Assembly (NCBI GenBank): GCA_964400575.1
Contig: CAYNVA010000244.1
Span: forward strand, 1 to 32,664
Direction: 5' to 3'
Origin: an uncultured Thermodesulfobacteriota bacterium
Lineage (GTDB): Bacteria; Desulfobacterota; WTBG01; CAIYCZ01; CAIRTM01
Length of the DNA: 32,664 nucleotides
The position numbers and the translations under genes were made by a program. The notes under the pieces were generated by a model. That model did not search any database and was not told where the DNA came from. It was given only the letters and a program-made list of their open reading frames with translations. Positions 3,755-23,271 of this stretch are shown piece after piece (the first letter of the stretch is position 1; the number at the start of each line of letters is the position of its first letter).

Positions 3755-6688
<2,934 letters not shown>

Positions 6689-7546: not shown

Positions 7547-7921
7547 TCACATGAATTTTGCCACATTAGCAAGCAGTGTTTTTTCGTCGAATGGTTTGAT
7601 CATGTATTCATCGGCACCCTGCTTCATACCCCAGAATTTGTCGCTTTCCTGACTTTTGCTCGAAATAATGATTATTTTTATATCCTGTGTTTCGGGTGAG
7701 TTTTTAAGCTGGCGGCAGACCTGAAAGCCGTTTTTTTTAGGCATGATGACATCCAGAAGCATTACTCGCGGATGCTGACTGCATGCTTTTTCAATCGCTT
7801 CATCACCGTCTACTGCTGTGATAACCGTATAGCCTTTGGCTTTGAGCGGAGCAGTAAGCAGCTGGAGTTCCGTAGGACTGTCGTCGACGACCAGTATTAT
7901 GTTGGCTGCTTGTGTGGCCAT
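7547..7921 (-). CDS. Single-domain response regulator (CheY-like receiver only)
   Basis: 124 aa with ILVVDDS (acidic pocket), MLLDVIMP (phospho-acceptor Asp), IIIISSK and GADEYMIKPF (conserved Lys). There is no output domain. Confidence 0.92.
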   Translation of the reverse strand: MATQAANIILVVDDSPTELQLLTAPLKAKGYTVITAVDGDEAIEKACSQHPRVMLLDVIMPKKNGFQVCRQLKNSPETQDIKIIIISSKSQESDKFWGMKQGADEYMIKPFDEKTLLANVAKFM

Positions 7922-7926
7922 ACAAA

Positions 7927-8508
7927 TTAAATCTTTTTATTCAGAAAAGCCGTGACGTCCTGGAGCAATTTGTCCAGCGCCTGAGGTATATCCTTGCCGC
8001 GCCCCATGTGGCAGATTTTTACCAGTTCACGCTTTGATCCGGCTTCGACAATAATAAGCTCCAGTTCAACCGAGGGCACATCCTCATATGATGGAGATAA
8101 TCGTTTGATCAAGCCGGGCTTCCCCTGCATGCCTGTTATGGCTGCTGTCAGGACAACAGAGAGCCCTTCAACGGCGTTTTTCTTTCGGGCATCCAGCGCA
8201 GCAGTCAGTGATGTTTCGATGCGTGTCTGTGCCCAGGGATATTCAATTCTGCTGTAGTTTAAAATAGGGTGCAGGGTGACTGCACGGCAATCATCGAGTC
8301 TGAAAGCTGCATCTATCCACGCCCATGAAACGATATCATCCTCTTTCATGCCGGTATAATCCAGTATCAATCGCTGCATGGTTGCATTGTCCGAGGTCAT
8401 AACGCTAGCAGCATCAGCACCCGAAGCCTTTTTTTTCTGAGGACTGCTGCTGCAGGCGGCCAGGCACAGGCATAGAATAATCGTACTCCAAACCCCTATT
8501 GTTTTCAT
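7927..8508 (-). CDS. Hypothetical lipoprotein
   Basis: 193 aa with a signal peptide ending in the lipobox LAAC|SSS. Its stop is 5 nt before the response-regulator ATG, which suggests translational coupling. I recognise no family. Confidence 0.75.
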   Translation of the reverse strand: MKTIGVWSTIILCLCLAACSSSPQKKKASGADAASVMTSDNATMQRLILDYTGMKEDDIVSWAWIDAAFRLDDCRAVTLHPILNYSRIEYPWAQTRIETSLTAALDARKKNAVEGLSVVLTAAITGMQGKPGLIKRLSPSYEDVPSVELELIIVEAGSKRELVKICHMGRGKDIPQALDKLLQDVTAFLNKKI

Positions 8509-8808: not shown

Positions 8809-9903
8809 ATGAAGCAGGTTCAAAATAAGCTGTTACCTCCAGACTGGCAAGCGATAGCTATGATGCAGTTTTTTAAAAAGCAGACGACACAGGATAAATT
8901 CAAGGATTCACTGGACAAACTGCAGAAGCTCCAAGTGCAGAATCCGGCCGATCTGCGTGTGCGTGTCAAAATTGCCGAACTGTATTTGGAATACGGCAGG
9001 AAAGAGGAAGCCATCGGTGAATATCTTGCTGCAGCAAACGCATATCAGACCAAGCGTCTTTTCCAGATAGCTGTCGCAATTTATAACCACGCCATTTCTA
9101 TAGACCCTGATCAGGTCGATATCTATACGGAGCTTGCCAATCTTCACTTGAGAAACGGTTTTATCGGCGATGGCGTTGCCGTGCTTGAAAAACTCGCCAA
9201 TCATTTTTGTGATAAAAGCATGAACTATGAGGCGGTTCAGGTGCTCAATAAAATTCATGAAATTGATCCCAGCAATGAATTTTTTAAAATGAAGATTGCA
9301 AAATTTTATCATGACAAGGATTGGCAGATTGCAGAACCGAAAAACGGAGATACAGTCGAAGCGCAGATCAAAGTTCCTCAGGGCGATTTCGACCTTCAAT
9401 CCGCCCTTGCCAGCGATGCTGATGTATATGTAGCCATTCCCCCTCAGGGCACCCAGGAGGAAGAGGCGGGCGGCGGTATGACCTTTGATGATGTGTTCAG
9501 CCAGTTGAAGGTCATGATTGCCAATACCGATGACATGAACAGCCCCCAGTTTCATTTTAATTTTGGTCTGGCCTATATCCGGTGCAGAGAATTTGAAGAA
9601 GCAATCACTGAGTTCACGGCAGCGCTGGACGGGGTTGACAATAAAGCAGAATGCTATATAAAACTTTCTGAGTGCCATATGGCTCTCGAGCATTTTGACA
9701 TTGCAAATGACTTGATCGGCAGGGCTTTAAAACTATTGAACCTTACCGAAAAAGACAGGCTCAGTCTGATTTATCAGTCGGGGCTTGTGTATAAGGAAAA
9801 AGGAGATTCGCAAAAGGCTTTAAAGGTTTTCCAGAAGGTGTACGATGCCGACCGCAATTTCAGATCGGTTGACATTGAAATTAAAAATCTTTTAAGATCG
9901 TGA
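8809..9903 (+). CDS. Soluble tetratricopeptide-repeat (TPR) protein, first gene of the GTPase operon
   Basis: 364 aa. TPR-like helical repeats (e.g. AELYLEYGRKEEAIGEYLAAANAY, LANLHLRNGFIGDGVAVLEKL, GLAYIRCREFEEAITEFTAAL, GLVYKEKGDSQKALKVFQKVY) are separated by an acidic linker containing GGGMTFDDVF. No obvious SD. Confidence 0.8.
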   Translation: MKQVQNKLLPPDWQAIAMMQFFKKQTTQDKFKDSLDKLQKLQVQNPADLRVRVKIAELYLEYGRKEEAIGEYLAAANAYQTKRLFQIAVAIYNHAISIDPDQVDIYTELANLHLRNGFIGDGVAVLEKLANHFCDKSMNYEAVQVLNKIHEIDPSNEFFKMKIAKFYHDKDWQIAEPKNGDTVEAQIKVPQGDFDLQSALASDADVYVAIPPQGTQEEEAGGGMTFDDVFSQLKVMIANTDDMNSPQFHFNFGLAYIRCREFEEAITEFTAALDGVDNKAECYIKLSECHMALEHFDIANDLIGRALKLLNLTEKDRLSLIYQSGLVYKEKGDSQKALKVFQKVYDADRNFRSVDIEIKNLLRS

Positions 9904-9912
9904 GGTTGAGCC

Positions 9913-11394
9913 ATGGCCGTCTTTAATGCAGCAAAACGTGAGATTGATTTAAAGATAGTTTATTATGGTCCGGCGATGTGCGGCAAGACAACCAATGTTC
10001 AGTGCATTCATAAAATGCTGGCCCCACAGCAGCGCGGCGAACTGATGTCCCTGGCCACCAAGGATGACCGGACGCTTTTTTTCGATTTTCTTCCGATAGA
10101 GCTGGGCGATGTAAGAGGTTTTAAGACGCGCTTCCATATATATACAGTGCCGGGGCAGGTGTATTACGGCCTGACACGCCGCGCCGTGCTCACCGGTGCA
10201 GACGGCGTCGTGTTTGTTGTTGATTCCCAGACAAATAAACTGCAGGACAATATCGAAAGCCTAAAGGATTTGACTGAAAACCTCAAATTTTATAAAAAGG
10301 AGATTAAATCCTTTCCCTTTGTGCTTCAATATAATAAACGTGATCTGCCACATGTGGAGCCTTTCGCTGAGCTCAATGCCATGCTCAATACGTTTGACGT
10401 GCCTGCGTTTGAATCAAGTGCCTTAACGGGCATGGGCGTTGTGGAAACGCTCACTGCCATATGCAAAATGGTTCTTAAGCAGATGGACAGCGGTACGGCA
10501 AAGAAAAAACCCAGCCAGCCTTCGGCGTCCGGGCAGCCAGTCCCAAAGACTGCTGCACCATCAGGGGTTGCGGCTGTTGATGCGGGGCTCCAAATTTTCA
10601 GTAAACAGGCAACCCCTCCATCGTTTGCCGGGAAGCCTGAACCCGTGCAGCCTACTCAGATCCCACCGGCGCCGGCTCCACCTGCGCCGGCTGCCATGCC
10701 AGCACAAAAGCCGTCTCCTCGGTTGCGCCCTACGGAACCTGCGCCGTTGTCGTTTGATGAACCAATGCCTCCAGCAGCTCAGACATTCCAAAGAAACGCT
10801 GAGCCACAGTTTGAGGGCATTGGTGCAGAATCCCCACCCGCGTTTGAGAATGGCTCATCTGATATGAGTGCCGATATAGGGCTGACTTTTGATGATAATG
10901 AGGAAGTGGCTCTTGATGAGACTGCAGTGCCGGAGCCTGAACTTTCTTTTGATGCAGAGGAGGAAGTATCTCTTGATGAGGAGGCAATGCCGGAGCCTGA
11001 ACTTTCTTTTGATGATGATGCATCAGACCTTGTCATGGAAGAGCCCGCCTTTGAGATGGAGGAGCCTGAATTATCCTTTGAAGATGATGACTCCGGGCTT
11101 GCTGCGGAGACCGCATCGGATGCAGCTGAGCAGACAGCCTTCACTGACGACTCTTCAGCCTTTACCCTGGAAGAGCCGTCTCTACAGTTTGAAGAGCCTC
11201 AGGGTGGTGAGGATTTTTCTGAAATGCCTGTCCTGACACCATCGGTTGCAGGTTTTTCCATTGTAGCATGCGGAGAACCACGGAAAATTTCCGACACCTC
11301 GATCAGTCTGCCGATAACACTCAGGCTGAATAAAGATGATACCGAGTGCCCGATTACGATTACTATCAGCCTTGATGATATGCCGTTCAGATAA
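9913..11394 (+). CDS. MglA-family Ras-like small GTPase (residues 1 to about 190) fused to a roughly 300-aa Pro-rich/acidic-repeat tail and a short C-terminal domain
   Basis: The N-terminus matches MglA nearly motif for motif: REIDLKIVYYGPAMCGKTT (P-loop), DDRTLFFDFLP (switch 1 with the intrinsic Arg), FKTRFHIYTVPGQVYY (switch 2 Gln), ADGVVFVVDSQ, LQYNKRDLP (NKxD) and ESSALTGMGV (G5). The tail is PAPAPPAPA-type linker, then repeated EPELSFD motifs. SD GAGG lies 6 nt upstream. Confidence 0.9.
   Translation: MAVFNAAKREIDLKIVYYGPAMCGKTTNVQCIHKMLAPQQRGELMSLATKDDRTLFFDFLPIELGDVRGFKTRFHIYTVPGQVYYGLTRRAVLTGADGVVFVVDSQTNKLQDNIESLKDLTENLKFYKKEIKSFPFVLQYNKRDLPHVEPFAELNAMLNTFDVPAFESSALTGMGVVETLTAICKMVLKQMDSGTAKKKPSQPSASGQPVPKTAAPSGVAAVDAGLQIFSKQATPPSFAGKPEPVQPTQIPPAPAPPAPAAMPAQKPSPRLRPTEPAPLSFDEPMPPAAQTFQRNAEPQFEGIGAESPPAFENGSSDMSADIGLTFDDNEEVALDETAVPEPELSFDAEEEVSLDEEAMPEPELSFDDDASDLVMEEPAFEMEEPELSFEDDDSGLAAETASDAAEQTAFTDDSSAFTLEEPSLQFEEPQGGEDFSEMPVLTPSVAGFSIVACGEPRKISDTSISLPITLRLNKDDTECPITITISLDDMPFR
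10900..11019 (+). repeat. Two tandem 60-bp in-frame repeats inside the GTPase tail
   Basis: A 27-nt core, tgccggagcctgaactttcttttgatg, is identical at 10928-10954 and 10988-11014. The flanking gaggaagt(gg/at)ctcttgatgag occurs at 10900-10920 and 10960-10980. It encodes EEV.LDE....PEPELSFD twice. Confidence 0.9.
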
Positions 11395-11418
11395 ATTCGA
11401 GCCACACGAGGCAGCTCT

Positions 11419-13326
11419 ATGTCATGTACCCACGTGCACAACATGATTCCTGCACGCATTTTACGTCTGGCGATTGCTTCGCTGATGGTCGTTCTGTTTT
11501 GTTCGGAGCCTCAGGCCGGAGTCTATGATACCGGCATTGCACTTCCACGGTCAGCCCAGGCAAAAGACCTGGAAGCTTTTCTTGCAACGGTTCATCAGAA
11601 AACTCTGGACCACGGCATACGGAATTTTGTGCCGTATTCTTCAATGCTTGTCAAGCAAGCTCAAGAAGCAGTTCAGCGACGTGAGTATGACGCGGCGCAG
11701 GTGCTCGTGAAGTATGCTTGCGCATTATCTCCAGATAGCCCTTATGTTTACACCGCACAAGCCCTCACGCGATGGCATGCAAACAAAGCAGATTTGCTTG
11801 CGGCTGCTCAAAATTTCGCCACTGCTTTTGTGAAATCTTTGTCGCCTTTGAATATTGACTATTTAAGTATGGCGGTATTTGAAAATGCCGGTGCTGTTGC
11901 AGGGAGCATTCTGCTCACATTTTGCACTATCGCCCTGCTGCTGCTGCTTGCACACCTTTCACTTTTTTATCACGATCTGCAGCACGCGGCTCCTGCTTCC
12001 ATGACAAATGTTTCGGTGTGGGCCATGGTGATCACCGTCCTTGTCCTGCCTCTGATATGCAGGCTTTCCGTAATATGGTTCTGCGCATGGGCGGTCGTTC
12101 TTTTGTTTAATTATACAACCAAGCGTGAGCGTCAGGTGATACAAGGATTTTTTGTGCTTCTGGTTATTGCCGTACCACTGCTGGCGGCAGCTATGGGGTT
12201 CGCAAAATGCATAAGTCAGGATGAAACAATCAAGCTTTTGTGGAAGGCTAATTACGGTTATTGTGATGTTCGCGATGCCGACATGCTGGAGAAAAAACTC
12301 GAGCGTCTGGCTGCCGATGATGATGTGCTGCTGAGTCTCGGGCTGCTCTATAAAAAAGAAGGCAGCTTCGGCAGTTCCCATACATATTACGAAAAGGTGC
12401 TGCGAGTAAACCCCGGAAACTATAAGGCCGCAATCAACCTGGGTAATGTTTGTTTTGCAGAACACAACTGGGATGCGGCGGTGAAACACTATAATCAGGC
12501 CGCAGCCATCTCCCCTTATAAAACTGCGGCAGCTCATTTCAACCTGTCCCGGGTCTATCAGTTGAAATTCATGTTCGGCGAATCAGAGCAGGCTCTCAAT
12601 ATTGCCAAGAAGCTTGACCTTGCCCGTGTCAGTTCGTATCTGCAAGAGATATCCGATCATTACAATCGCGTTACCATTGATGAAACCGTTGCGGTTTCGC
12701 GACTGTGGATGCGCGGGCTCAATCTTTTTATGGACAATCCTGCATATACGCAGGACGCCTGGCGCAGTATGGTTGGCGGCTTTGCCTTTCCGTATGGTCC
12801 TTTGGGGTTTATGATTTTGGCAGTGGCTGCCGTGTTCATTGCCGCCAGAGACAGTATACGTATAGCGGTGCGTTGTAAACTGTGCGGCAAGGCCATGTGC
12901 CGTCGCTGCCAGCGTTCCGCCGCTGCCGATCTTGTCTGCGCTCAGTGTCACAGCCTGCTGCGCATGCAGAGTACTGTAGGGTACGGCGTCAGGGAAGACA
13001 AAATGAACCGCATCAAGAGCTATATCAAGCGGAAAAGAATCACTGCTGCAGTTTTAGGATATGCACTTCCCGGAGCGGGGCATTTCTGTGCCGGCCAGAC
13101 GGTAATGGGCACAGCGGGCATGCTTGTTTTTTTCATGCTGCTGCTCAAGGTTGTGACGCCGATTTTTTTTGAAGGCCCATGGGATTTTTTGTTTGGCCCA
13201 CGAATTTTTGAATGTGCTGTGTATGCCGCATTGCTCCTTCTGTACTGGGGCATCATGGCTTTGTATGTGCCCAGAATTCAGACTCGATCCAGTGAAGAAA
13301 ATCTGCTTTTGAGAATCGTTTCATAG
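11419..13326 (+). CDS. Polytopic membrane protein with TPR repeats and a Cys-rich zinc-ribbon-like loop
   Basis: 635 aa: signal/anchor, a helical N-domain, about 4 TM helices (e.g. GSILLTFCTIALLLLLAHL, VWAMVITVLVLPLICRL), a TPR block (LGLLYKKEGSFGSSHTYYEKVLRVNP, NLGNVCFAEHNWDAAVKHYNQAAAISP), one TM, then CKLCGKAMCRRCQ....LVCAQCH, then about 3 more TMs including a LPGAGHF motif. SD GAGG precedes 11419; an alternative ATG is at 11443. Confidence 0.8.
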   Translation: MSCTHVHNMIPARILRLAIASLMVVLFCSEPQAGVYDTGIALPRSAQAKDLEAFLATVHQKTLDHGIRNFVPYSSMLVKQAQEAVQRREYDAAQVLVKYACALSPDSPYVYTAQALTRWHANKADLLAAAQNFATAFVKSLSPLNIDYLSMAVFENAGAVAGSILLTFCTIALLLLLAHLSLFYHDLQHAAPASMTNVSVWAMVITVLVLPLICRLSVIWFCAWAVVLLFNYTTKRERQVIQGFFVLLVIAVPLLAAAMGFAKCISQDETIKLLWKANYGYCDVRDADMLEKKLERLAADDDVLLSLGLLYKKEGSFGSSHTYYEKVLRVNPGNYKAAINLGNVCFAEHNWDAAVKHYNQAAAISPYKTAAAHFNLSRVYQLKFMFGESEQALNIAKKLDLARVSSYLQEISDHYNRVTIDETVAVSRLWMRGLNLFMDNPAYTQDAWRSMVGGFAFPYGPLGFMILAVAAVFIAARDSIRIAVRCKLCGKAMCRRCQRSAAADLVCAQCHSLLRMQSTVGYGVREDKMNRIKSYIKRKRITAAVLGYALPGAGHFCAGQTVMGTAGMLVFFMLLLKVVTPIFFEGPWDFLFGPRIFECAVYAALLLLYWGIMALYVPRIQTRSSEENLLLRIVS

Positions 13327-13335
13327 CGAGAGAGC

Positions 13336-14406
13336 ATGTCATCATTGCAGGGTTCCATAAAAGATTTCGGCGCGGCTGATATTCTGCAGCTTTTATCCCA
13401 GCAGCAGAAGTCGGGAGTGCTGCTCTTAGAGCACGACAGGGAGACGGCCGAGATTTATTTTTCAAACGGTCATCTTGTTGATGTTAAGTCCCCTAAAGAT
13501 ACGGATCGTCTGGGAGCGATGCTTGTCAAAAGCACACTTGTCACGGCTGAGCAGTTCGGACAGGCTTGTGAAAAGCAGAAAAATACGCTTGAGCCTATTT
13601 GCAGTATTCTGCTTGCCCAGGGCATACTCAGCAGGGAGAATTTCGAGCGCATCCTCCTCACCAATACCTATGAGGTCTTCTATGAGATTCTGCAGTGGCA
13701 TTCGGGAACATACCGTTTTGTTGCGCAGACTGTTACACGGGAGTCAAGCCTCGTGCAGCTGCCGGGCCTTGAATCCATCCTGCTTGACGTTCTGCGCATG
13801 ATTGACGAATGGCCTGAGATCAAATCTGTTATAGGCACTTTTGATATGCTGTTTGAAAATAATTATGCGGCTCTGCCTGATCTTGATTCAGATGAGGAGC
13901 GCGTGTGCGCTCTGGTTGATGGGGATCGCAGCGTGCAGGACATTATTGACGCCAGTCTTCTGGGCAGATTTTATGCCTGTAAGACACTTGTGCGGCTGCT
14001 TGAGCGTGGTTCGATCAGGCTGTTGTCCAAACGGGCTGAAACGAAGGTCGATAATAAAAACATGCTTGCCCGCGCAGCAATCAGTATAGCCTCATGTTGC
14101 AGCCTTGCCGGCGTTGTCGCCCTGATATTCTTCCTGCCCGGCAGTTTTCCGGAGAGCACCGTTCCTGTCCTTCGTCTGTTGCGCTGTGAGCGCACAGCGC
14201 TGCAGCAGGCTTTTGTCCGTGATGAAGCTGCTAAGCTTGAAAAAGCCCTGGAAATATGCCGACTTATAACTGGAACGTATCCCGAAACCCTGCGCGAGCT
14301 TGCCGACCATAGGATTCTGTCAAAGCAGGATATAGCCGGTATCGAAAGGGATGCTATCGTGTACATTAAAGCGCTGGGCGCCTACGATATACATATAGGT
14401 CCGTAA
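13336..14406 (+). CDS. DUF4388 / PATAN-domain protein with a C-terminal membrane anchor
   Basis: 356 aa. The N-terminus LQGSIKDFGAADILQLLSQQQKSGVLLLE....EIYFSNGHLVDV is the characteristic DUF4388 signature, a domain known to co-occur with MglA-type GTPases. A TM helix AISIASCCSLAGVVALIFFL lies near residue 250. Confidence 0.8.
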   Translation: MSSLQGSIKDFGAADILQLLSQQQKSGVLLLEHDRETAEIYFSNGHLVDVKSPKDTDRLGAMLVKSTLVTAEQFGQACEKQKNTLEPICSILLAQGILSRENFERILLTNTYEVFYEILQWHSGTYRFVAQTVTRESSLVQLPGLESILLDVLRMIDEWPEIKSVIGTFDMLFENNYAALPDLDSDEERVCALVDGDRSVQDIIDASLLGRFYACKTLVRLLERGSIRLLSKRAETKVDNKNMLARAAISIASCCSLAGVVALIFFLPGSFPESTVPVLRLLRCERTALQQAFVRDEAAKLEKALEICRLITGTYPETLRELADHRILSKQDIAGIERDAIVYIKALGAYDIHIGP

Positions 14407-21457: not shown

Positions 21458-22027
21458 ATGGAAACCATTAAAAGAATACGCCTGATACTTTTGTTTGTTG
21501 CCGCAGTAGCGGTTTCAGTCGTCGTCGGTATGGCTATCGGAAATAAGAAACAGCAAATCGTTATTAAAACCGACATCCCTCAGGCAGTAAAGAACGGTCC
21601 GAGTGTCGAGATGAAAAATGTTGCATACTCAACCACAAATAATGATAATTTTAAAGAGTGGGATTTGGATGCTGAATCCGCCCAGTACTTACAAGGCGAA
21701 AAGCGTGTTATTCTTGGAAATCTTTTAGTCAGCGTCTACCGTCCCAACGGGAAGGTGTACAAAATACGAGGCCAGCATGGTGAATTTAACACGGAATCTC
21801 GAGATATAAAGATGCGCGGCGCTATATGGGGCGTCATGCCCGACAATACAACTATCCAGACCGAGTCAGTTGATTATGATCATGCTAAACGACTTATAAC
21901 GACGCAGGACAAGATTTTTATCGGGCGCAACAGCAAGTTTGCCTTGGAAGGAAAAGGCATGATAATAGATCTGGCAAAGGAAAAAATGACAATTTTGAGC
22001 AATGTAAAAGCGCTGGGGAGCAAATGA
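21458..22027 (+). CDS. lptC: LPS export system protein LptC
   Basis: 189 aa with an N-terminal TM anchor and a beta-rich periplasmic domain. It occupies the canonical position between kdsC and lptA, and its stop overlaps the next start (ATGA). Confidence 0.8.
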   Translation: METIKRIRLILLFVAAVAVSVVVGMAIGNKKQQIVIKTDIPQAVKNGPSVEMKNVAYSTTNNDNFKEWDLDAESAQYLQGEKRVILGNLLVSVYRPNGKVYKIRGQHGEFNTESRDIKMRGAIWGVMPDNTTIQTESVDYDHAKRLITTQDKIFIGRNSKFALEGKGMIIDLAKEKMTILSNVKALGSK

Positions 22028-23271
22028 AAAAAAATATCTTTTTTAGCATTGTACTGGTTGCACTGCTCGTGCCTTTTGCGGCGCGTGCGGAGCAGGATAT
22101 AGCGGTGAGCGCAGCTGTGCTGCCGTTTGAATCTTTCAGCGGGGAGCAGAAAACATCGCTCGGGCGCGATGTTGCAGTGAGGCTCCTGCAGCAGCTTTCC
22201 GCAAACCCGCTGATTGTGACCCCGGAAATTCAGGCTATGAAAGCAGTCTTTGCAAAGGATGATTCTGCGACACCCAGCGAGGATAGGCTCCGGGAGGTGG
22301 CCAAGCAGCTGAATGTAAATTTTTTGCTGTTTGGAAGCGTCACAACAGTGAAGGATGCAGTCAGCATTGATGCCAAGGTGTTTTATAATTTCCCCGGGGA
22401 CAACTACTTTAAGACCTATGCCGAAGGGCCTGAGCTGGAGAAGGCGGTCGATGAGCTTGCCCGCAAAATCGAGCAGGAACTGCTTGACAAGGCATCACTG
22501 ATCCCCGCAGCACAGAGACCCGCAGTAAAGATAAAAAAGAAAGTTGTTTCTCCGGCTGGCGAGCCGGGTGCGGCAGAATATGAGAAGGCGGTCAACCGCG
22601 AACTGGCTGATGAGCAAGAGCTGGAGGATGCTGAAGTAAGGCATGTGGATGCTGCAAAATCTCAACTGGTTGACGATTTGGCAGAAGACAATGATTCAAA
22701 GCACTCTGTATCCAAAATGAATAAAAAGCCCACTGAGGAGCCAGAAGACCTTGATCAGCCAGCAGGGAAGTCACCGGCACTGAAGGATCGAAAGAAACAA
22801 GAAGACAGCGATAGAAAAAAAGATAGCCTGCCATTAAAGCTTGATCAGCCGGTGAATATCAGTTCAGATGCCCTGGAATACAGCAACAAGGACAACAGCG
22901 CCATTTTTCGGGGGAATGTGGTTGCACGGCAGGGCGATATGGTCATGTTTGCCGATCAGATGGAAGCCACATATGCCGGCAAGTCCGGGGAGAAGAATGA
23001 AAAGGGCGGTATCAAGGAATTGACCGCTACCGGCAATGTGAAAATTATACAGGGAGAACGAATCGCCACAGGGCAAAAAATCGTTTTCTACGGCGATGAA
23101 CAGAAAATCGTTGCAACAGGCAATCCACGCGTGTGGCAGGGCGACAACGTCATAGTTGGCAGTAAAATAACGGTCTATCTGAAGCAGGACCGGAGCATTG
23201 TCGAGGGCACCAATCAGGACCGGGTCAGTGCCACCATTTATCCCAAGGAAAAAAAAGGAAAAAAGAAGTAA
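22024..23271 (+). CDS. lptA: LptA/OstA-domain periplasmic protein with a roughly 270-aa N-terminal extension
   Basis: 415 aa. There is a signal peptide, and residues about 276-400 (nt 22849-23223) form the OstA/LptA beta-jellyroll (SDALEYSNKDNSAIFRGNVVARQGDMVMFADQME...ATGNVKIIQGERIATGQKIVFY...ATGNPRVWQGDNVIVGSKITVYL). Residues about 25-160 form an extra globular domain (VLPFESFSGE...FLLFGSVT), followed by a K/E/D-rich linker. Confidence 0.8.
   Translation: MKKNIFFSIVLVALLVPFAARAEQDIAVSAAVLPFESFSGEQKTSLGRDVAVRLLQQLSANPLIVTPEIQAMKAVFAKDDSATPSEDRLREVAKQLNVNFLLFGSVTTVKDAVSIDAKVFYNFPGDNYFKTYAEGPELEKAVDELARKIEQELLDKASLIPAAQRPAVKIKKKVVSPAGEPGAAEYEKAVNRELADEQELEDAEVRHVDAAKSQLVDDLAEDNDSKHSVSKMNKKPTEEPEDLDQPAGKSPALKDRKKQEDSDRKKDSLPLKLDQPVNISSDALEYSNKDNSAIFRGNVVARQGDMVMFADQMEATYAGKSGEKNEKGGIKELTATGNVKIIQGERIATGQKIVFYGDEQKIVATGNPRVWQGDNVIVGSKITVYLKQDRSIVEGTNQDRVSATIYPKEKKGKKK

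Follow-up and report, generated by a model that had tools for sequence, protein, structure and literature searches.

What does a GTPase of the MglA type do when its gene sits in one tight unit with genes for a tetratricopeptide repeat (TPR) protein and two membrane proteins? The question is raised by a contig of an uncultured Thermodesulfobacteriota bacterium (assembly GCA_964400575.1, contig CAYNVA010000244.1), of which we analyzed the stretch of 32,664 nt from position 1 onward (the window). Between positions 8809 and 14406, four plus-strand open reading frames (ORFs) separated by gaps of 9, 24 and 9 nt encode a putative TPR adaptor (TPR1), a GTPase, a predicted polytopic inner-membrane protein (MEM) and a PATAN protein, which carries a DUF4388 domain and a transmembrane (TM) anchor. 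The block is real, conserved and uncharacterized, and it belongs to a general kind that is known, in which a switch of the MglA type has PATAN and TPR partners. The most economical reading is a membrane-associated GTPase switch module, much as the preliminary description of the locus, made from the DNA letters, had proposed. The GTPase is a member of MglA group 1, and the four genes are conserved together.

The four genes form a conserved block around a core pair

The ORF coordinates agree with the preliminary description, which had reported four same-strand genes at these spacings, with two start codons remaining uncertain. NCBI places the start of TPR1 at M18 (nt 8860, giving 347 aa), the orthologue alignment agrees, and nt 8860 is probably the true start. 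The JGI gene caller starts MEM at 11443, which gives 627 aa and lengthens the preceding gap to 48 nt. Profile searches returned the expected domain content, namely TPRs, a GTPase, about eight TM segments with TPRs and a Cys-rich loop, and DUF4388 with a TM helix. A scan for promoters and terminators gave no signal over background and no convincing terminator inside the block.

To follow the block in other genomes, relatives were sampled from three starting points: the GTPase homologues, MEM (185,579 species genomes scanned) and the PATAN protein (80 retained of 181 relatives in a metagenome scan). MEM, GTPase and TPR1 were called in these loci with local hidden Markov models (HMMs) built from our own alignments. 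Starting from the GTPase homologues, every contig inspected showed the order TPR, GTPase, TPR-membrane protein and PatA_N; starting from MEM, nine loci from metagenome-assembled genomes (MAGs) had the same order wherever sequence exists. Eight of the nine are labelled uncultured delta proteobacterium or Deltaproteobacteria bacterium, and the ninth, labelled "Chloroflexia", is probably mis-binned; the MAG labels of the relatives were Deltaproteobacteria or Proteobacteria. The neighbourhood comparison thus found the block kept in all sampled relatives despite different flanks. In the divergent locus L006 it stands between the genes for SMC, SPOR and LarA and that for deoxyhypusine synthase, and in L019 between those for EPSP synthase and PilZ and those for an AAA protein and a GT2 glycosyltransferase. 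Between loci the identity of the partner proteins drops to 26-35%, whereas that of the G domain stays at 62-74%.

Across about 100 loci, MEM lies directly upstream of PATAN in every one. The GTPase gene precedes MEM in 51 loci, 42 of which also have TPR1 within the available sequence. No GTPase is found in 15 loci with at least 2.2 kb of upstream sequence (L067, L073, L075, L078, L080, L081, L083, L085, L087, L089-L092, L098 and L099), and the remaining loci are too short to decide. The GTPase-less loci have a G+C content of about 71% (where measured), come largely from soil-type samples and encode a longer MEM of about 700-740 aa. In the two that were scanned against Pfam, L091 and L078, the pair stands between an upstream MazG gene and a downstream gene for a 7TM-HD protein, and in L091 a PhoH gene directly follows PATAN. 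Because the pair also occurs without the GTPase in these 15 high-G+C loci, MEM and PATAN are the evolutionary core, and the GTPase and TPR adaptor are an addition in one large clade.

The GTPase has an MglA group-1 G domain and a long extension

Residues 2-194 of the GTPase aligned without gaps to the solved MglA structures of Myxococcus xanthus (E 1e-65) and Thermus thermophilus (9e-60) in a phmmer search against the PDB. The best non-MglA GTPase in the same search reached an E value of 5e-5, and no other family fits better; Pfam returned weak Arf, Ras and Gtr1 matches. All the MglA hallmarks that had been noticed in the first ~190 residues (GPAMCGKTT, DDRTLFFDF, TVPGQ and NKRD) could be read. 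The P-loop conforms to GxxxxGK[ST] and the G4 motif to NKxD, the G2 arginine finger (KDDRTLFFDF) aligns residue for residue with that of M. xanthus MglA (ETDRTLFFDF), and the G3 motif YTVPGQ, with its catalytic Gln, aligns to the MglA TVPGQ, in which Thr-Val-Pro replaces DxxG. An Arg in G2 and Thr-Val-Pro ahead of Gly-Gln in G3 are the signature of MglA group 1 (Wuichet & Sogaard-Andersen 2015, PMC4316618), to which the GTPase is assigned on these motifs and alignments.

The preliminary description had overlooked an extension of about 300 aa past the G domain, as it had the SgmX-like TPRs, the MshEN-like alpha-clip, the GspG-like ectodomain and the occurrence of the core pair on its own. Single-domain MglA proteins have ~190-240 aa, whereas this GTPase of 493 aa consists of the G domain, a disordered tail of ~260 aa and a C-terminal domain of ~45 aa. 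The tails of the top 40 homologues contain 7-16% Pro and 13-26% Asp plus Glu. In the window, the tail holds eight [LIVMF][STA][FL][DE] motifs, with a ninth match inside the C-terminal domain, and part of its acidic E-P-E-L-S-F-D-D repeats is encoded by a 60-bp tandem repeat (10886-11015, 2.2 copies, Tandem Repeats Finder). The repeat arrays are far longer in L009 and L010, and the copy number shifts fast between close relatives. The acidic ELSFDD repeats were rejected as a family-wide trait, given a median of one motif in the relatives against eight in the window tail; what is conserved in the tail is its composition and not this motif. A separate feature of one divergent clade, represented by L006 (8001-9443) and L015 (6304-7785), is an extra CPRC...CPIC zinc-ribbon insertion in the tail, which the window GTPase lacks.

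The last ~45 residues are conserved in 36 of 36 aligned homologues, with an invariant Cys-Gly and an invariant Pro, and 97 of the top 120 database matches contain the CGxPxK motif. AlphaFold2 models this domain as a four-stranded beta meander with a predicted local distance difference test (pLDDT) score above 90. It had no Pfam match, and a Foldseek search of the model against the PDB returned nothing below E 0.2. The CGxPxK C-terminal domain is a family that Pfam and NCBIfam do not recognize.

MglB is missing from the locus

The preliminary description called the GTPase "MglB-less". Profile searches found no Roadblock/LC7 (Robl_LC7) match in any window ORF scanned, and an M. xanthus MglB query found nothing in the window or the related loci by tblastn and phmmer. 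Nor was a Roadblock gene found within +/-7-8 kb in ~100 related loci, using the precomputed Pfam tables of the neighbours and phmmer in 100 loci. The label is therefore valid locally, in the window and within +/-7-8 kb at the related loci, and a stretch of 32 kb does not allow it to be extended to the genome.

Published data put this absence in a different light. Table S2 of Wuichet & Sogaard-Andersen (2015, PMC4316618) shows that deltaproteobacteria often have, besides a single MglA-MglB pair, further MglA paralogues that are long and orphan. Such group-1 proteins without MglB are listed for Geobacter (281-305 aa), Anaeromyxobacter (335-356 aa), Myxococcus (298 and 372 aa) and also for Corallococcus, Stigmatella and Sorangium; in several cases a PATAN gene is one gene away. 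Since deltaproteobacteria often combine one pair with such paralogues, it is quite possible that an MglB is encoded elsewhere in this genome; and since the genomes listed also hold the canonical pair, being "MglB-less" is the normal state for an extra MglA paralogue.

The first alternative to a special module follows from this. The GTPase may be nothing more than an additional MglA paralogue of the usual sort, which a canonical MglB turns off and RomR/RomX-like proteins turn on, all encoded elsewhere, in which case the block would supply effectors and a membrane address and the lack of MglB would be an artefact of a 32-kb view. We consider this a serious possibility, though not one that we would favour outright. 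Besides the many deltaproteobacteria with such a gene set, it is supported by the 84 of 488 MglA-family sequences that lack coupling to MglB (PMC4316618) and by the catalytic Arg and Gln, which MglB repositions and which are intact in the GTPase. It is opposed by SofG, the sole characterized long orphan paralogue, which is not stimulated by MglB (PMC4316618), and by the want of a Roadblock gene near any of the ~100 loci.

TPR1 resembles the N-terminal part of SgmX

The Pfam matches of TPR1 are exclusively to TPR families. In NCBIfam, positions 20-156 of the SgmX model (NF052243) were the best family for seven of seven divergent orthologues (best E 5e-27), clearly ahead of the usual promiscuous TPR families. 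In SgmX, eight N-terminal TPRs activate type IVa pilus formation and the C-terminal TPRs bind MglA-GTP (PMC11580455). Judged by these profile comparisons, the relation of TPR1 to SgmX is one of resemblance, not of membership.

F194, D195 and L196 are invariant in the TPR1 orthologue alignment. They belong to the linker motif FFDLxxAL (window 9388-9408, residues 194-200), which is similar to the L-S-F-D-D repeats in the tail of the GTPase, so that one surface of a partner may bind both.

MEM is a membrane protein of a family without a name

MEM contains eight hydrophobic segments, including an N-terminal signal/anchor, Pfam TPRs at residues ~290-400 and the Cys motif CxxC-x4-CxxC-x9-CxQC at residues 486-510 (nt 12874-12948). 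Hydropathy and the positive-inside rule gave a self-consistent topology, with 15 Lys and Arg residues in the loop 485-556. The N-terminus, the YHDLxH and TKRER loops, the 72-residue loop with the six Cys and the C-terminus are predicted to be cytoplasmic, and the two long stretches of helical repeats (36-155 and, formed by the TPRs, 268-453) periplasmic. The preliminary description had taken all non-GTPase partners for scaffolds or membrane anchors. With its predicted place in the periplasm, however, the TPR block of MEM is unlikely to serve the GTPase as a scaffold in the cytoplasm.

An AlphaFold2 model of MEM reached a pLDDT of 81.6 and a predicted template modelling score of 0.77. Foldseek matched its TPR part alone and found no relative of the membrane core, and a profile search with the MEM alignment was dominated by generic TPR proteins and gave no new named relatives. 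An exhaustive HMM search of 1.84 billion representatives found at least ~100 full-length relatives (600-830 aa) among the best 150 representative clusters. MEM thus stands for a family of some size that has no name in any library. The predicted cytoplasmic His-Asp loop (YHDLRH, residues 185-186) and the TxRER loop (233-238) are invariant, no known family carries either, and from the alignment they look like a conserved functional site.

The PATAN protein combines three parts

The PATAN protein matched Pfam DUF4388 (PF14332) with 102.3 bits (cutoff 25), and model positions 1-121 are spread over residues 5-159, indicating an insertion that coincides with an MshEN-like alpha-clip segment. MshEN is a tandem 24-residue motif, RLGxx(L/V/I)(L/V/I)xxG(L/V/I)(L/V/I)xxxxLxxxLxxQ, with a 5-residue spacer, and binds cyclic di-GMP (c-di-GMP) (PMC5013675). 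The 24+5+24 spacing is kept in all 96 PATAN orthologues, and the two halves of the window protein agree with the relaxed motif at 9/11 and 10/11 positions. The NCBIfam family c-di-GMP_motif, which is related to MshE, was matched by seven of seven orthologues (best E 8.5e-13). In Synechocystis, PATAN binds PilB and PilC, and the alpha-clip is related to the GspE/PilB N1 domain (bioRxiv 10.1101/2021.06.11.447907).

About 85 residues past the TM helix are predicted to lie outside the membrane. Searched against the PDB with a profile of this ectodomain, the top seven matches were all GspG; they are weak (E 0.0027-0.033) and cover ~30 residues (ALExYRLxxGxYP). Pfam T2SSG (PF08334) was matched by five of seven ectodomain members (best E 0.0031), and the window member had no match.

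A possible mechanism and what weighs against it

In the mechanism that we propose, the GTPase would be a nucleotide switch whose GTP form engages TPR1, as MglA-GTP engages SgmX. Its flexible tail and C-terminal domain would hold it at the cytoplasmic face of a platform made of MEM and the PATAN protein, at either the zinc-ribbon loop or the PATAN domain, and the platform would reach into the periplasm via its TPR arrays and the pseudopilin-like domain. The switch would set where or when an envelope-spanning process attached to the platform is active. A type IV filament-like machine (pilus or secretion) would be the most likely process, favoured because PATAN, alpha-clip, GspG-like and SgmX-like parts are all present; these four pointers (for PATAN, the binding of PilB and PilC) are independent and each weak alone. 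A second input could come from c-di-GMP through the alpha-clip, and GTP would be hydrolyzed with the help of an MglB encoded elsewhere or of an operon partner acting as an unrecognized GTPase-activating protein (GAP). The whole mechanism, a switch at the MEM/PATAN platform governing an envelope-spanning process, is put forward tentatively, with slightly less than an even chance of being right.

Several observations weigh against it. No pilus or secretion genes were found in the window or the sampled flanks, the one related neighbour being the PilZ gene in L019. The window TPR1 scores 64.7 bits against SgmX, for which the cutoff is 1800, and matches model positions 20-156 only, below family membership; the similarity is moreover of TPR to TPR. 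The window alpha-clip scores 31.9 bits against c-di-GMP_motif, below the cutoff of 38, with Cys in place of the Gly of the second xLG and two deviations in the first motif. The GspG likeness of the ectodomain is weak (E ~0.003) though consistent across orthologues, and no prepilin leader or cleavage site (G/FTLxE) was found in residues 240-275 of the PATAN protein, where the TM helix follows a cytoplasmic domain of 240 aa. The presence of the core pair without a neighbouring GTPase means that the function of the platform is not strictly GTPase-dependent. Finally, the roles given to the C-terminal beta domain and to the membrane core of MEM are guesses, as neither has recognizable relatives.

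The same data can be arranged around c-di-GMP instead. The block would then be mainly a c-di-GMP-responsive envelope device, in which the alpha-clip binds the nucleotide and MEM and PATAN control a process in the periplasm or at the outer membrane, for instance polysaccharide export or envelope tethering. The GTPase would serve as a modulator particular to its lineage, with no part for type IV filaments. The MshEN-like spacing kept in the orthologues, the c-di-GMP_motif matches, to which NfrB-type glycosyltransferase models add three of seven, and the occurrence of the core pair without the GTPase all suit this arrangement, as do the PilZ gene directly upstream of the block in L019, the large predicted periplasmic TPR arrays and a conserved neighbouring lipoprotein. 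Yet none of the 96 orthologues is perfect in both halves of the relaxed motif, about two thirds lack the key Arg, the window score lies under the curated cutoff, and no conserved glycosyltransferase or export genes adjoin the block in the window or the inspected loci. We judge this alternative unlikely.

A more far-reaching idea, which we regard as decidedly doubtful, is that MEM and the PATAN-TM-GspG-like protein constitute an unrecognized inner-membrane platform for a pseudopilin-based structure of the envelope that is like a type IV filament. In this lineage it would be licensed by a covalently extended MglA with an acidic tail of the polar-targeting kind and a new partner-binding beta domain, with no Roadblock GAP; an operon partner or the C-terminal domain in cis would act as GAP or guanine nucleotide exchange factor, and c-di-GMP would be a second input. 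Some other envelope or positioning function is a further alternative. Mere inherited synteny in a housekeeping stretch (SecA-TrpF ... TrxB), with no functional link, is most improbable: many loci do share the ArgJ-SecA-TrpF flank, but the same four genes stand in the same order between different flanks in L006 and L019, the intergenic gaps are 9-48 nt and MEM and PATAN are adjacent in all ~100 loci, so that chance or mere-synteny adjacency is effectively refuted.

Relation to known systems

Makarova et al. (2006) and later Wuichet & Sogaard-Andersen (2015) pointed out that PATAN genes are linked to mglA and mglB; being already published, the MglA-PATAN linkage is not new. The composition of the block as a whole matched no characterized system, as the preliminary description had stated, in a literature search, Pfam, NCBIfam and PADLOC, and NCBI annotates near-identical proteins only as "hypothetical protein" or "DUF4388 domain-containing protein".

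The MglA-SgmX(-FrzS-SopA) pathway of M. xanthus type IVa pili resembles the block in joining a group-1 MglA to a TPR protein, TPR1 matching the N-terminal, pilus-activating TPRs of SgmX. It differs in that SgmX has 1065 aa and 14 TPRs against 347-364 aa for TPR1, that a 300-aa tail and a further domain extend the block GTPase, and that no MglB, RomR, FrzS or pilus genes lie near the block; the two dedicated, co-transcribed membrane proteins have no counterpart in that pathway. Bdellovibrio MglA, acting with Bd2492 and RomR, likewise works through a TPR partner and has no adjacent MglB (PMC4316618 on Milner 2014), but it is a plain protein of 197 aa with an unlinked TPR gene, whereas TPR1 adjoins the 493-aa block GTPase.

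Orphan long MglA paralogues, namely SofG and the 335-379-aa myxobacterial proteins, share with the block GTPase a group-1 G domain with an extension and the lack of an adjacent MglB, some having PATAN one gene away. SofG acts together with the bactofilin BacP, and membrane partners are not known for it, whereas the block has two membrane proteins; for the myxobacterial paralogues next to PATAN, the published arrows suggest a convergent arrangement, as opposed to the same-strand order here. On MXAN_2692-2695 and SgnC, a literature search found no usable paper.

The cyanobacterial PatA-type regulators PixG, PixE and PatA have, like the block PATAN, an alpha-clip insertion related to PilB/GspE N1/MshEN. 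In contrast to them, the block PATAN has no receiver domain, is fused via a TM helix to a GspG-like ectodomain and is always preceded by a MEM gene. A looser parallel comes from the Agl-Glt machinery for gliding in M. xanthus: its membrane protein GltJ reads MglA-GTP with a cytosolic region that includes a zinc finger, and a partner domain binds a proline-rich sequence (PMC11135422). MEM is likewise a membrane protein with a predicted cytosolic zinc-finger region, which is an analogy only: GltJ crosses the membrane once and has ZnR, GYF and TonB-like parts, and MEM is a polytopic protein whose TPRs are predicted to be periplasmic.

Surroundings of the block

The features are listed in Table 1. 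Upstream of the block, the window holds the housekeeping genes for ArgJ, SecA and TrpF; downstream follow those for TrxB, a HAD hydrolase, tRNA-Met, an amino-acid permease, KdsB/KdsA, LptC/A/B, RpoN, HPF, PtsN and RapZ. A riboswitch or other RNA element was ruled out, the tRNA-Met being the sole Rfam match in the window, and so was a defence system, for which the PADLOC models gave one generic TPR match (E 0.0015).

A lipoprotein gene and a receiver gene form a pair divergent from the block. Upstream of the block in L004, L005, L012, L013, L018 and L020, which belong to the SecA-TrpF synteny group, the lipoprotein is conserved with ~30% identity; L006, L015 and L019, which have other flanks, lack it. 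It is possible that it is an accessory periplasmic partner, or just local synteny. The stand-alone receiver that had been reported as a divergent neighbour is a real receiver and lies outside the conserved unit. It was rejected as a member of the module, being found in the close relatives L001, L008, L010 and L014 only.

In L019, a PilZ-domain gene (5404-5730) lies directly upstream of the block and an AAA+ ATPase gene (11674-13182) directly downstream, and in L017 an AAA+ ATPase gene (11847-12809) follows the block closely; these genes may be lineage-specific additions to the module. Two further observations concern other parts of the window. Between a GDSL lipase gene and argJ, about 1.6 kb (~709-2320) have a lower GC fraction (0.44) and short or overlapping ORFs without a family match. 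At 22024-23271, an LptA-like protein of 415 aa has its LptA/LptD_N domain in residues 278-389 alone, its first ~270 residues being without assignment.

Table 1. Positions of the block genes, their parts and the divergent gene pair in the window
Feature	Position (nt)	Strand	Length	Description
TPR1 (gene 1)	8809-9903	+	364 aa	putative soluble TPR adaptor
TPR1 parts	8809-9903	+		N-terminal TPRs, residues ~32-168; acidic linker with invariant F-D-L, 194-200; C-terminal TPRs, ~240-351
GTPase (gene 2)	9913-11394	+	493 aa	assigned to MglA group 1
GTPase G domain	9913-10494	+		residues 1-194; from phmmer against the PDB
GTPase disordered tail	10495-11256	+		Pro-rich stretch, then acidic E-P-E-L-S-F-D-D-type repeats
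GTPase C-terminal beta domain	11257-11394	+		IVACGxPxKISDTSIxLPI...ITISLDD
MEM (gene 3)	11419-13326	+	635 aa	predicted polytopic inner-membrane protein
MEM predicted layout	11419-13326	+		signal/anchor 10-30; periplasmic helical repeat 36-155; TM 159-183; cytoplasmic YHDLxH loop; TM 197-215 and 216-232
MEM predicted layout, continued		+		cytoplasmic TKRER; TM 241-263; periplasmic TPRs 268-453; TM 458-480; Cys6 zinc-ribbon loop 486-510; PGAGH; TM 560-582 and 596-618
PATAN protein (gene 4)	13336-14406	+	356 aa	DUF4388 and TM anchor
PATAN protein parts	13336-14406	+		PATAN/DUF4388, residues 5-159; MshEN-like alpha-clip, 58-110 (nt 13507-13665); TM 245-270 (nt 14068-14145); GspG-like ectodomain, 282-356 (nt 14179-14403)
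Lipoprotein	7927-8508	-		lipobox LAAC; divergent from the block; no Pfam or NCBIfam match
Receiver	7547-7921	-		Response_reg, 91.5 bits; second gene of the divergent lipoprotein-receiver pair

Meaning for the MglA family

Among bacterial polarity switches, GTPases of the MglA type are understood best, but nearly all of this knowledge was gained on the MglA-MglB pair in Myxococcus and Thermus. The block defines two families outside Pfam and NCBIfam, the CGxPxK domain and MEM, the latter with at least ~100 clusters at 50% identity, and joins PATAN, MshEN-like and pseudopilin-like parts in a single protein. With a putative switch, an SgmX-like adaptor and two membrane proteins in one transcription unit, which predicts that they are direct physical partners, it offers a compact and widely conserved test case for how extended orphan MglA paralogues are controlled and what they act on.

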